Source of the DNA: an uncultured Pseudomonadales bacterium
Lineage (GTDB): Bacteria; Patescibacteriota; Microgenomatia; UBA1400; CAYXSR01
Assembly: GCA_964467735.1 (NCBI GenBank)
Contig: CAYXSR010000006.1
Span: forward strand, 1-57,475
DNA length: 57,475 nucleotides
Direction of reading: 5' to 3'
Shown: positions 1,809-5,889 of the stretch, in pieces
How positions within the stretch are numbered: position 1 is the first letter of the stretch
Layout of the letters: each line of letters starts with the position of its first letter
Made by a program: the position numbers and the translations under genes
The notes under the pieces: generated by a model
Told to the model about the DNA's origin: nothing
The model's database searches: none
Seen by the model: the letters and a program-made list of their open reading frames with translations, nothing else

Positions 1809-3835
1809 AGGACAATTTTATTTTAAAACCAGTCGCAAAAATAATCGGAATTTTGTTGTTAATTGTTGGTCTTGGTTTAACACAGTTTGGAAACACCGGT
1901 GCTTGGTTGTTTAGTAGTTTAACAGCAGAAGATAATCCTGTGGAAACTGGTGTTTTAGATTTGACTGTTCGTTCGGGACAAACTAATTTTGTTCCGGGAG
2001 CAGAGGATTTATCTCCTGGAGATTCAGTTGCTCGAGATATTTATGTGGGTAAAACCCTTGCTAGTTTTCCTTTGAAACATAGAGTTTCTTATCAATTTAC
2101 TGGAGGAGATGCAGATTTTTGTAACCAGTTGCAACTTAAAATTTGGTATGACCATTATCATTGTGATCCAAGTTTAGGTTATACCTGCAGGGATATGAGG
2201 TTAAAATATAATGGATCTTTGGTTAGTTTAAACCAACTTGATGACACTGATTTTATTATTCCTCACTCTGATGATGAATTTGATACCGATCCTAGTAACG
2301 GAACAGAACAGTGGTTTTTTTATCAAATTTTTATTCCTTCAGATTTAGACGAAGCTTATCAAAATTCTACTTGTCAGTTTAATTTTGTTTATCAAGGTTA
2401 TCAACAAGATAGCGATGGAAGTTGGGGATTTACTGACGAAGAAACATTAAGTAATACCATTGGTAGTACAAATTGGGCTTGTGAGGAAGGTTCTTGCTGG
2501 TTAAATAACGTTGAGGACTATAGCCAGGGTACTCGTAAAGATGGCAGTCCGGTACTTCCGGAAAGATCAGATCCTGAAGATGTTTTAGGAGTGGATGATA
2601 GTCCTCAGCCAGTGGTTAACTTTTACAGCCTAGGAAAAGATGGTTGGATTATTGCATCTTTTGAATATCCAGTAATGAATATTACTGGTGATGATCTTTC
2701 TGTCTATGAAGTTACTTGGGGAAACCGTTTCAGTTATCCCGAAGAGAAAGCAAGAGTTGAAGTTAGTCAAAATGGTACTCTTTGGTATGATCTTGGAGAA
2801 GCCACGAATCATGTGACCAACGGAATTAATAGTTTTGATTTAACATCAGTAGGATTAAGTTGGATCCGTTATGTTCGCTTAACAGATACAACCGATTATG
2901 GATCGCATACTAATAATTCAGATGGTTTTGATCTTGATGCAGTTAGAGGTAATCTTCATAGCTGTGAACAACAACAGGAAGAACCAGGTTCACCACCTTC
3001 TCAACCGACAGAAGAAATAGTAGTTAATGAAGTTTACTATGATGTTGGAGGTGATAAAGGATCAGAAGGAGCGAATGAGTGGGTAGAGTTTTATAATAAG
3101 AGTACAAGCCCGATTGATATCACTGGGTGGAAGCTTTGTGATAATAATTCATGTGATGTTATTCCTTCTTCAAGCCCAATTCCAGTTAATGGTTTTGCTG
3201 TCATTACTGCTCAAAGTTCAACCTGGAGTTTTTGGTCAATTCCTATGGGAACAATCCAAGTTGTTCTTGGTGGGAACATAGGGAATGGTCTTTCTAATGA
3301 TAATGAGAGATTAGTTTTAAGAAAAGCAGATGATAGCGAAGTTGATGCGGTAAGTTGGGAAACAGACACTTATGCATTTAATCCAGCAGTTATTGATGTT
3401 TCTGAAGGACATTCAATCAGTCGGAATCCTGTAGGAGTTGATACTAATACTGCTGCCGACTGGATAGATAATTCAACACCAAATCCTGGCACAAATCCTC
3501 ACAGTCATATTCAGGTTAATTTAAAACAAGAAAATAATAATTTATTAATTTCTTTTAGTAATGCTACTGGTTTTGATTTAGTTAGATATTCGGTGAGTTA
3601 TAAACATATGTTTGAAGGCCAGACCGTAGAGGAATTGATTCAAGGAGAGAAAAGTAAAAATGTAGATGAAGAAAATCTAGAATTAGACCCAATTTATATT
3701 GGTACTTGTTCCGGCGAAGGTCTAGTTTGTGTTCCTCATCAAGATATTAGCGAAGGACAAGTCTTTTTGATGTATAAGAACGGACAAGAAATTTTAGGTA
3801 CATCAACTTTAGATTTTGAGTGGGAGAATAAATAA
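1805..3835 (+). CDS. Multidomain SipW substrate: TasA-like domain, beta-rich domain, lamin-tail domain (LTD), C-terminal domain
   Basis: GNTGA|WLFSSLTAEDNPVETGVLDL signal; DLSPGD and AYQN motifs; LTD signature IVVNEVYYD...EWVEFYN...IDITGWKL. Confidence 0.78.
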   Translation: MKDNFILKPVAKIIGILLLIVGLGLTQFGNTGAWLFSSLTAEDNPVETGVLDLTVRSGQTNFVPGAEDLSPGDSVARDIYVGKTLASFPLKHRVSYQFTGGDADFCNQLQLKIWYDHYHCDPSLGYTCRDMRLKYNGSLVSLNQLDDTDFIIPHSDDEFDTDPSNGTEQWFFYQIFIPSDLDEAYQNSTCQFNFVYQGYQQDSDGSWGFTDEETLSNTIGSTNWACEEGSCWLNNVEDYSQGTRKDGSPVLPERSDPEDVLGVDDSPQPVVNFYSLGKDGWIIASFEYPVMNITGDDLSVYEVTWGNRFSYPEEKARVEVSQNGTLWYDLGEATNHVTNGINSFDLTSVGLSWIRYVRLTDTTDYGSHTNNSDGFDLDAVRGNLHSCEQQQEEPGSPPSQPTEEIVVNEVYYDVGGDKGSEGANEWVEFYNKSTSPIDITGWKLCDNNSCDVIPSSSPIPVNGFAVITAQSSTWSFWSIPMGTIQVVLGGNIGNGLSNDNERLVLRKADDSEVDAVSWETDTYAFNPAVIDVSEGHSISRNPVGVDTNTAADWIDNSTPNPGTNPHSHIQVNLKQENNNLLISFSNATGFDLVRYSVSYKHMFEGQTVEELIQGEKSKNVDEENLELDPIYIGTCSGEGLVCVPHQDISEGQVFLMYKNGQEILGTSTLDFEWENK

Positions 3836-5889
3836 TGAATAAAATTTTTAAATATATTACTTTATTACTTTTGAGTTTAGGAGTTTTGGTTTTTCCTCCT
3901 AAAGCTTTGGCAGCGGACCTTACGGTTACTTGTCCTGATAGTGCTTCGAGTTGTAATATTAGTCCTTCGGGAACTCCTTTGTTTGAAGAATTTAATGTTT
4001 ACCCAGGATATACAAATACACGACAAATTACTGTTGTAAACGAAGATATTAACGATAGTTGTTCTTTAGTTTTAAGCATTCCAGAAGAAAGTATTAGTGA
4101 TCCTTATAACTTAGCAGAAGTGGTTTTGACTGATATAGAAAGTGGGGTTAGTTATTTTGATAATACTTTAGAAACCTTATTTAATCTACCTGCACCGGGA
4201 ACATTAGACTTAGGAACGATACCAGTTAATGATAGTAGGGTTTATAACTGGACAGTGACTATGGATCCGGAGGCAGGAAATGAATATCAGGGAGTTTCGA
4301 CGATTTTTGATTTTGGACTTCAATTTAGTTGCGGAGAACCAGCAGGATTGACGATTAGTAAAGATAATGATCAAAAAGGCAATACTCTAAAGCAAGGTGA
4401 TAGTGTTATTTATAGTATTACTGTTGTTAATGATAGAGAAGATACCCTTTACAATGTTTTTATTAAAGATACTCAACCGATTAATGATTATTTCACTTAT
4501 CAGTCAGGTTCTGCTAGCTTGGTTTGTAGCGTTAACCCCAGAACTCCTAGTTTAGTTGAGTCAGGCAATCCTTTTGTATGGAGTATTGGTGATTTAGCAG
4601 CCGGTGAGGAGTGCACATTAACCTATGAGATAACAATAGATGATGATTCAATTGAAGGTACTCATTATAATCTTGCTGTTGCTTATGGCAACCCAGAAGA
4701 AGGGGAAACAGTTTATTCAGCCGTTGTCTTTGACCCGTTTGATATTGGTAAACCAGGAAGCTTGTCTGCTGGTTATAATGTAGAACAAGGTGAAGTTTTG
4801 GGAGCCAGCACAATTGGCGAAGTTTTGGGAGCAGCCACTGGTTCACCTACTTTTTGGCTAATTTTAGCTTTGGTGTTAATATCATTAGGATCAGTTTTAA
4901 AGATTTTTAGAAATCAGAAAATGAAAAAAATAACTCAGCTTATAATTCTAATTTCATTTTTAGGATTCAGCCTTTTTAATCCTACAGCCGTTTGGGCGGC
5001 TGATACTCAAACTCCAGCAGTGGCAATTGTTCAATTGCCTGAATATTTGAATAAAAGAGATTTTGAAATTTCTTATACTGCTTTGGATTTGGGTGAAGCT
5101 GGTCTTAGAGATGTTCACTTGGAATATCTAAAAGAAGGCGGTTTGTGGCAAGACTTGGGTACTTTTACCGAACATGCCAACAAAACTAGTCTTGATGGTT
5201 CAAAGATAAATGAAGACAAGAAGTATTATTTTAAGGCAACTGCTTGTGATAATGAAAACAATTGCAGTTCTAGTGAAACATCAACAACAGTTGATACTAG
5301 TGCACCACCAAAACCAGAAAATTATTCCAAACAAAAAGTTAGTACCAAAACCTATAAGATAACCTGGCATAATCCAGACAGTGATGATTTAGATAAAGTT
5401 TATGTTTACCGGGCAGATAAACGTGATTTTAATGCCGATGAGGGAACCAAAATTGCTAGTGTGGGAGTAAGTAAAAATAGTGACAGTGAATATACGGATT
5501 GGGCAGTGCCTGACGAAAATAAAGAATACTTTTATGCGATTCGTTCGGTTGATAAAGCCGGCAATGGTTCGGATTTAGTTGGCGATAGTATTACTACTTC
5601 TTCAGAAGCAACCACACCGACAGGTGAGACAGTCAATGGTCAAACAATAGAAGGTCAGCAACCAGTTGTTCAGACGGGTCCAAGTGATTCTCAAGGTGAA
5701 GTTTTAAGCGAAAAAGATCCTGAAGATAAGGAAGAAGAAGGAGAGAGTTCGCAAGAGACAGGAGAGGTTTCTAATGAAGAAGAGATTTTGGGTGAAACTA
5801 CTAAAAAGAAATTGCCTTGGTTACTGATTATTGGCGGTTTAGGAATAATAGGAATATTTTACTGGCTTTTTAAGACTTCAGATGATTAA
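3835..5889 (+). CDS. Surface protein: TasA-like domain, DUF11-like domain, sorting signal, internal signal peptide, FN3/Ig-like domains, C-terminal TM
   Basis: Sec signal (KALA|A); NVYPG...ITVVN...GNEYQG; LTISK...GDSVIYSITVVN...WSIGDLAAGE; YYFKATACD and YFYAIRSVDKAGN FN3 motifs; two internal and one terminal hydrophobic segments. Confidence 0.75.
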   Translation: MNKIFKYITLLLLSLGVLVFPPKALAADLTVTCPDSASSCNISPSGTPLFEEFNVYPGYTNTRQITVVNEDINDSCSLVLSIPEESISDPYNLAEVVLTDIESGVSYFDNTLETLFNLPAPGTLDLGTIPVNDSRVYNWTVTMDPEAGNEYQGVSTIFDFGLQFSCGEPAGLTISKDNDQKGNTLKQGDSVIYSITVVNDREDTLYNVFIKDTQPINDYFTYQSGSASLVCSVNPRTPSLVESGNPFVWSIGDLAAGEECTLTYEITIDDDSIEGTHYNLAVAYGNPEEGETVYSAVVFDPFDIGKPGSLSAGYNVEQGEVLGASTIGEVLGAATGSPTFWLILALVLISLGSVLKIFRNQKMKKITQLIILISFLGFSLFNPTAVWAADTQTPAVAIVQLPEYLNKRDFEISYTALDLGEAGLRDVHLEYLKEGGLWQDLGTFTEHANKTSLDGSKINEDKKYYFKATACDNENNCSSSETSTTVDTSAPPKPENYSKQKVSTKTYKITWHNPDSDDLDKVYVYRADKRDFNADEGTKIASVGVSKNSDSEYTDWAVPDENKEYFYAIRSVDKAGNGSDLVGDSITTSSEATTPTGETVNGQTIEGQQPVVQTGPSDSQGEVLSEKDPEDKEEEGESSQETGEVSNEEEILGETTKKKLPWLLIIGGLGIIGIFYWLFKTSDD
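4789..4842 (+). repeat. 27-bp imperfect tandem duplication encoding GEVLGA twice
   Basis: ggtgaagttttgggagccagcacaatt / ggcgaagttttgggagcagccactggt. Confidence 0.8.

Follow-up and report, generated by a model that had tools for sequence, protein, structure and literature searches.

A probable two-in-one envelope precursor of Patescibacteria with a sorting signal and a signal peptide back to back in one chain

Introduction

Bacterial export almost always handles one chain at a time, and in viral glycoprotein polyproteins, such as Gn/Gc of bunyaviruses, it is the host signal peptidase that cuts at internal signal sequences. The closest described layout to the one treated here is that of the streptococcal Zmp proteases, which have a signal peptide, an LPXTG motif and two hydrophobic segments according to the part of PMC3518915 that deals with their layout. 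Our subject is an open reading frame (ORF) at positions 3835..5889 of the forward strand in a stretch of 57,475 nucleotides, here called the window, which is contig CAYXSR010000006.1 (positions 1 to 57,475) of assembly GCA_964467735.1 from an uncultured bacterium that was deposited under Pseudomonadales and is placed in the Patescibacteriota by GTDB. This ORF comprises 684 codons, is stop-free throughout, and presents its signals in the same order as that source gives for Zmp, namely a signal peptide, an anchor motif, a helix, and a helix with a cleavage site. A reading of the letters without database searches, the sequence-only reading, had proposed that one translation product is cut by a sortase between T and G of LGAATG and by signal peptidase I after AVWA, which would give two anchored proteins at 1:1, and had named a recent fusion by loss of a stop codon as the alternative. 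As judged from the related sequences, the fused forms are old and recurrent, and the gene appears to encode a real, conserved two-in-one envelope precursor. As many relatives have inherited the join, cleavage at the membrane probably yields two proteins from the one chain. Literature searches for such fusions in Patescibacteria, which did not extend to supplementary annotations, found no paper that describes this layout.

Layout of the fused reading frame

At the level of the sequence, the description given by the sequence-only reading is accurate in all items. The run from a sorting-signal-like block into a signal-peptide-like block is free of stops, and it is followed by the FN3-like domains and the second terminal transmembrane (TM) helix that had been recognized; all features lie on the forward strand. 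The chain starts with an N-terminal signal peptide of 26 residues (3835..3912), which is seen in the translation and as a modelled helix at residues 3-19, and whose cut site at the ALA|AD end is a reading of the sequence. A first beta-rich domain follows (residues 29-166; 3919..4332), modelled by AlphaFold with low confidence, and residues 1-170 show similarity to the N-terminal portions of other secreted proteins in relatives. The next domain is a DUF11-type beta-sandwich (residues 172-304; 4348..4746; pLDDT about 80-89), in which PF01345 (DUF11) matches residues 174-281 with an E-value of 4.7e-10 and with 40.2 bits, above the gathering cut-off of 24.6. Behind this domain, a doubled EVLGA motif (residues 321-336; 4795..4842) consists of a GEVLGAS copy and the subsequent GEVLGAATG (residues 328-336), the LGAATG end of which occupies the site of LPATG in relatives. 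Model and sequence then agree on a hydrophobic helix, TM1 (residues 338-359; 4846..4911), as the putative stop-transfer part of the sorting signal. With 362 residues this N half is short, and it lies within a TasA/SipW operon.

The gene join falls in a basic loop, KIFRNQKMKK (4900..4929; net charge +5), which is read from the sequence as cytoplasmic and includes the ATG at 4921. This ATG encodes Met363, from which the chain continues as MKKITQ, through a helix at residues 366-380, to NPTAVWA|ADT. The core and c-region of the internal signal peptide (residues 366-388; 4930..4998) end in AVWA, so that the predicted signal-peptidase cut lies between 4998 and 4999, and the helix, TM2, is short with about 15 residues in the model. 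In total, 322 in-frame residues follow the sorting-signal-like block. They include two FN3 domains (residues 395-486 and 495-573; 5017..5553), which belong to what we call the partner half. When this half was modelled alone with 48 relatives, two beta-sandwiches were obtained (pLDDT about 97 for residues 31-220 of the half), and Foldseek matched them with a probability of 1.00 to tandem FN3 structures, the best target-normalised TM-score being 0.62 for 3pdd. A Pfam fn3 sequence match was not found in the partner half; in searches with Pfam and NCBIfam, DUF11-type matches in the N half were the only ones, and no match in the C half passed the cut-off. A lysine at the start of the second FN3 domain, Lys499, lies in a [YF]xK[ED] context and is conserved in 46 of the 48 aligned partners. 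The chain ends with a disordered acidic stalk (residues 586-661) and a C-terminal membrane helix (residues 662-680; together 5590..5874; model and sequence), ahead of which EEILGE is found.

The element [EQ][VI]LG[AE] recurs just outside membrane anchors. Two copies precede TM1 and one (5785-5802) stands before the last helix, another occurs in a 363-aa protein on contig C10 of the same genome (C10:21225-22313), about 2 kb upstream of the sortase gene of that contig, and in all relatives the element stands ahead of LPATG. It may serve a sorting enzyme as an extended recognition element.

Fused and split relatives

Support for the join was obtained from Logan contigs of two sequencing runs, which were compared over 4400-5400. 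Contigs of one run (X1), possibly the source of the assembly itself, cover 4415-5400 with 0 differences. From another sample of the same study (run X2), a 375-nt contig over 4729-5100 bridges the join with 6 substitutions and 0 gaps, and no stop is created by the three of these that are listed (Ser>Pro at 4762, a silent change at 4986, and Thr>Ala at 5011). Fused orthologues are moreover present in independent assemblies. A search of 5.8 billion proteins at E <= 1e-10 found 10 others, 8 of which are full-length fused orthologues of 653-705 aa with 44-54% identity from several sources; one orthologue is recorded as a Patescibacteria protein. In all 9 orthologues, the window's protein among them, V321-A324 and L331-G336 are invariant, within the invariant blocks VLGA and LGAATG..T.WL, and Ala occupies position -1 of the predicted cut. 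Both junction helices vary in sequence among these proteins, and a Met at the join occurs in 2 of the 9.

The partner half was then sought in the 286 genomes of the order, where it was found at 40 places in 39 genomes, and every junction was read. The sequence-only reading had asked whether homologues are fused or split, and the answer is that they are both. At 14 places the genes are fused, at 21 they are split and at 5 they lie at contig edges, and G058, where the gene is on another contig, is a 15th fused case, making 15 of 40. In ten fused members of the order, a canonical LP[AS]TG and a helix are followed by a basic loop, which leads directly into a signal peptide. In the clade of the window, which consists of G000 (the window's own genome), G016, G046, G034 and G058, LGAATG stands instead of LPxTG, and in relatives the equivalent place is taken by LPATG, LPSTG, LPNTG or LPDTG. 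Among the split pairs, 19 of 21 upstream proteins terminate in LPxTG, a helix, a basic tail and a stop; in the remaining two (G248b and G102) the upstream end is not visible. In G102 (locus L058; genome 78% complete), the partner gene is apparently broken by a frame change, with its N-terminal part in another frame upstream. In all of these 19 split pairs, the stop and the ATG of the partner are only -5 to +5 nt apart, with 4 in-frame TAA-ATG arrangements, 5 ATGA overlaps, 5 cases at -5, 3 at +4 and 2 at +5. The in-frame TAA-ATG pairs are a single base change away from fusion, and the window reads AAA-ATG at this place.

A maximum-likelihood tree of the partner half was calculated with 37 rows, leaving out 3 short rows and the first 30 residues. 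Fused genes take four positions in this tree, which are the clade of the window, a clade of 4 (f9), a clade of 5 (f13) and one single row, and each of the three fused clades has 100/100 support. The fewest state changes on the tree are 4, of which the starred branches force at least 2; as the tree is unrooted, it cannot be read whether these changes were fusions or fissions. The end branches inside the fused clades amount to 0.3-1.0 changes per column, which indicates that the fused state has long been kept.

A wider sample came from a phmmer search with the partner half against 1.84 billion cluster representatives, which gave 1639 matches at E <= 0.001 and 573 at E <= 1e-10. The best 150 representatives were sorted into 73 'fused', 1 'intermediate', 56 stand-alone, 17 repeat and 3 partial proteins. 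Four of the 73 turned out to be repeat proteins without a junction and were dropped, so that 70 junctions remain, including the one that is cut. The motif before TM1 in these 70 junctions is LPx[TA]G in 37, LGA[AS]TG in 31 and another in 2. A third motif variant, VLPAAGS, is present at the sorting-signal position in several fused proteins, for example P0039, P0056, P0057, P0067, P0070 and P0080. For the closest stand-alone partner in the library, P0008, two metagenome loci were found, and both are fused. As the layout recurs in relatives in this way, it lies far beyond chance.

The internal signal peptide and the start codon at the join

The features of a type I signal peptide of the Sec pathway are recognizable in the internal block, which has a basic KMKK, the helix 366-380 and V-W-A before A389. 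It begins at residue 363 and not at an N terminus, the position that it has in the split relatives. The retention of its cleavage site was assessed with a simple home-made pattern, [AVSTIL]xA not before Pro, within 21 residues after the TM2 core, and the same span was used for the controls. This pattern is present in 69 of 70 fused junctions and in 52 of 52 stand-alone partners (4 N-terminally cut records omitted), and in 200 of 588 internal hydrophobic cores of ORFs from the window's genome, which served as control. The fused forms hence retain the signal-peptidase site as often as free-standing signal peptides do. In the 70 fused proteins, the net charge of the stretch that separates the hydrophobic cores has a median of +5 and a minimum of +2. 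An enzyme for the cut is encoded as well: the window's genome, which comprises 794 kb in 23 contigs and is 97.85% complete, contains, besides SipW, a signal peptidase I of the LepB type, which was matched by PF10502 at C2:23200-23682 (E 2.2e-48), and either of the two may cut the internal signal.

Independent translation of the partner would require a start codon at the join. No GGAG, GAGG or AGGA is found within 17 nt before ATG 4921, as the sequence-only reading had stated in noting the lack of a Shine-Dalgarno (SD) motif. This is correct and has little weight, since SD motifs are uncommon in this genome, where they precede 93 of 425 first ATGs of long ORFs compared with 280 of 2454 internal ATGs. 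More informative are the orthologues. In G016 and G046 there is no ATG, GTG or TTG at the join, and in G034 only a TTG that lies inside TM1. As these three have no usual start codon at the join, their partner is expected to be made only within the long chain, and for most orthologues the sequences indicate that the partner depends on the long chain.

The sortase and the LGAATG motif

The N half carries the hydrophobic segment and the positive residues of a sorting signal in the helix 338-359 and in KIFRNQKMKK, and the signal is internal, not C-terminal. Two sortase genes (PF04203) are found in the window's genome, one on contig C1 (75641-76450) and one at the very end of contig C10. A sortase search over the same 286 genomes gave matches in 143, including the unpublished G175, and their coordinates were compared with the 40 partner places. 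At 33 of the 40 places, the gene immediately 3' of the partner encodes a sortase; in G046 and G034, a sortase gene is the immediate 5' neighbour of the fused gene. In the other 5, the sortase is on other contigs (G000, G016, G058), is unlisted (G247), or the place is at a contig end (G248a). The gene before the fused gene of G046 encodes a sortase with a PF04203 E-value of 2.3e-20, and the fused protein itself is a 2331-aa protein with SdrD_B, SpaA-type and DUF11 domains, which are typical of sortase-anchored adhesins. The fused genes of both G046 and G034 bear the same LGAATG as the window, and the C10 sortase of the window's genome is 54% identical to the G046 sortase and 63% identical to that of G034. 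From the position of the motif, its invariance and the linkage to sortase genes in relatives, we infer that a sortase probably acts on LGAATG. The three sortases tested all score under every class cut-off of NCBIfam, and no match to the exosortase/archaeosortase family was found in the window's genome. The LGAATG class may mark a sortase specificity that has not been described before.

The C10 sortase gene (24145-24801; locus L029) is an orthologue of the cluster sortase and stops exactly at the contig end, pointing outward. The contig of the window starts just upstream of the TasA/SipW operon, and the two contigs may be neighbours.

A predicted contact between the two halves

A complex of the two ectodomains was predicted from residues 28-306 and 389-585, both taken from one self-made alignment of 9 rows. 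All three runs scored 0.82, against 0.00 for the best of 3 controls; of 80 solved complexes 58 reached that mark, as did 2 of 110 mismatched pairs, counts which are only a rough guide because the alignment was self-made. The runs agreed in at least 85% of the contacts, with a partner pLDDT of at least 87. According to the model, strand 272-282 of the DUF11 domain contacts strands 395-402 and 410-417 of the first FN3 domain. The prediction supports the view that the two ectodomains bind each other, and such binding would explain a selection for 1:1 synthesis at one site.

Proposed mechanism and alternatives

We think that the best explanation is a two-in-one precursor that undergoes both cuts, with the sortase step taken loosely, and that arose when two adjacent genes with coupled translation fused in frame; as a whole, we hold this to be reasonably probable. 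One ancestor would have been a surface protein that ended in a sortase-type sorting signal, and the other a conserved partner in which a signal peptide preceded two FN3 domains, an acidic stalk and a membrane anchor. In the proposed sequence of events, the N-terminal signal peptide would start the Sec export of the N half until TM1 halts the transfer, the +5 loop would remain cytoplasmic, and the former signal peptide of the partner, TM2, would restart export as an in-to-out helix. Signal peptidase I would then cleave after AVWA, and the C-terminal helix of the freed partner would keep it in the membrane. Cleavage at LGAATG would probably be the work of a sortase, which would attach the DUF11 half to the wall or some other acceptor; this would leave behind a membrane hairpin of about 53 residues, and the two products would pair non-covalently. 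The two cuts differ in how firmly they can be predicted from the sequences: that of the signal peptidase is likely, and that of a sortase in the window's copy has a chance slightly better than even. The polyprotein idea of the sequence-only reading had thus described the anatomy correctly, and its reading is the one best supported, as the fusion is old and recurrent, the AxA site is kept and the enzymes are encoded; the part of it that is less firm is the T|G cut, which we infer at a motif other than LPxTG.

Several findings count against this explanation. The motif of the window, LGAATG, is without the proline of the LPXTG pentapeptide, the N half has no match to the sorting signals of NCBIfam, and we know of no sortase that accepts LGAATG. 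The window contains no sortase gene, and the likely cognate gene ends another contig. The cleavage-site counts come from the simple pattern and not from a trained predictor, and some of the stand-alone records in the library may be cut gene calls. Enrichment of the predicted interface in invariant columns is not significant on either side (9/27 versus 43/252, p 0.064; 8/22 versus 50/175, p 0.46). ATG 4921 could also initiate translation, as SD motifs are rare in the genome, and the f9 fused genes (loci L031, L046, L047 and L057) have kept a GGAGG and an in-frame ATG at the join, so that in this clade the partner could be translated on its own as well.

The last two points bear on the idea that the partner is mainly made by separate initiation at ATG 4921, with the long chain as a by-product. 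An in-frame ATG does stand exactly at the old gene start, and the absence of an SD motif proves little in a genome where such motifs are uncommon. Against this idea, 7 of 9 orthologues are without a Met at the join, G016 and G046 are without any common start codon there, and ribosomes in the long frame meet no stop before 5887, so that the full chain is made in any case; we therefore regard this idea as improbable. Least credible of all is that the ORF results from an assembly or sequencing artefact, or from a recent stop-codon loss in a decaying gene. Nothing favours it except the odd layout, and both the artefact and the recent stop-loss fusion, the alternative offered by the sequence-only reading, are ruled out by the gap-free contig of the second sample, by the fused orthologues in independent assemblies, which have diverged to 44-54% identity, and by the depth of the fused clades.

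The remaining alternatives accept the long chain and question its cleavage. It could stay uncleaved as a polytopic membrane protein, with two ectodomains on a hairpin of TM1, loop and TM2, a third helix at the end, and both signals as relics that serve topology. Such a topology would be self-consistent, with the +5 loop inside and three helices, and the predicted contact of the ectodomains would be possible within one chain. What makes it rather unlikely in our view is that nearly all fused proteins and 9 of 9 orthologues retain the small residues at -1 and -3 while the rest of TM2 varies and the control cores have them far less often, that TM2 has merely about 15 helical residues, and that LGAATG and LPxTG are invariant beside a dedicated sortase gene. 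A more serious alternative, still doubtful, is that the signal peptidase cuts and the sortase is inactive on the window's copy, the N half being held in the membrane by the hairpin of TM1, loop and TM2. In favour of it, LGA[AS]TG replaces LPx[TA]G in four relatives of the clade at the order level and in 31 of 70 fused library proteins, and simple pattern scans, which can miss substrates, found no canonical C-terminal LPxTG protein in the window's genome. Yet LGAATG is invariant over 9 orthologues that differ as widely as stated above, and a sortase gene abuts the LGAATG-type fused genes in G046 and G034. The reduced 794-kb genome also retains two sortases, and no other convincing candidate substrate with LPxTG-like or [AST][TA]G motif, helix and basic residues was found in it, again by simple patterns that can miss substrates. 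An extension in the opposite direction is that LGAATG is a new sortase motif and that the sortase, instead of linking the N half to the wall, joins Thr335 to Lys499 of the partner from the same chain, which would give a covalent two-subunit organelle of the surface, a minimal pilus, with a 1:1 ratio set by the fusion. The predicted contact between DUF11 and FN3 would position the parts with Thr335 and Lys499 for such a covalent joining; we consider it a speculative variant with little probability.

Operon and genome context

The fused gene is preceded by three operon genes on the forward strand. The first (309-1091) encodes a TasA-like protein with a SipW-type signal peptide, and the second (1137-1808) the signal peptidase SipW. 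The product of the third (1805-3835) has 676 aa, a camelysin-like N terminus and a domain of the lamin-tail type, and the stop codon of this gene shares one base with ATG 3835. The product of the next gene (5963-6934) has a CAP/YkwD-type domain and membrane helices at either end, and a gene of the CAP/YkwD type is also found 3' of the fused gene in G016.

Comparison with known systems

In its working, the fused protein resembles the Zmp proteases; it is not a member of the Zmp family. It has no metalloprotease domain, its motif is LGAATG, and its partner half has a C-terminal anchor of its own. As far as the account of the layout in PMC3518915 goes, the part of Zmp before LPXTG is a short leader of one enzyme, whereas in the protein described here both sides of the junction are folded ectodomains that are encoded by two genes in relatives. 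If our explanation is true, it would carry the little-studied Zmp-type secretion model over to entire lineages of ultra-small episymbiotic bacteria, in which contact with the host is probably mediated by surface adhesins.

The LPXTG sorting signal is like the one found here in its order of motif, helix and basic residues, and the split relatives hold the canonical form at a true C terminus beside a sortase gene. In the fused protein, by contrast, the signal is internal, reads LGAATG, and has a basic tail that also forms the n-region of the signal peptide behind it. This gene pair, in its split and fused versions, represents a natural experiment on internal signals and on the order in which sortase and signal peptidase act. 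Likeness is also seen to the sortase-pilus clusters of Gram-positive bacteria (PMC4049620), which comprise pilins, a dedicated sortase and a SipA-type homologue of signal peptidase. The genes described here form a module in which an adhesin with domains of the SpaA/SdrD_B/DUF11 type is combined with a small partner and a dedicated sortase, and the operon of the fused gene has SipW. The partner described here is different in that it carries no LPxTG, the sortases score below the class cut-offs mentioned above, and neither a pilin motif nor polymerisation is in evidence.

In the viral Gn/Gc polyproteins (compare PMC7926653), an upstream anchor helix is followed by the internal signal of the downstream protein, and the same succession is found in the fused protein. 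If the proposed mechanism is true, a sorting signal and a signal peptide placed back to back in one chain would be a cellular counterpart of these viral glycoprotein polyproteins, with the difference that the gene is a cellular bacterial one, has a sortase-type motif added, and bears no viral relationship.

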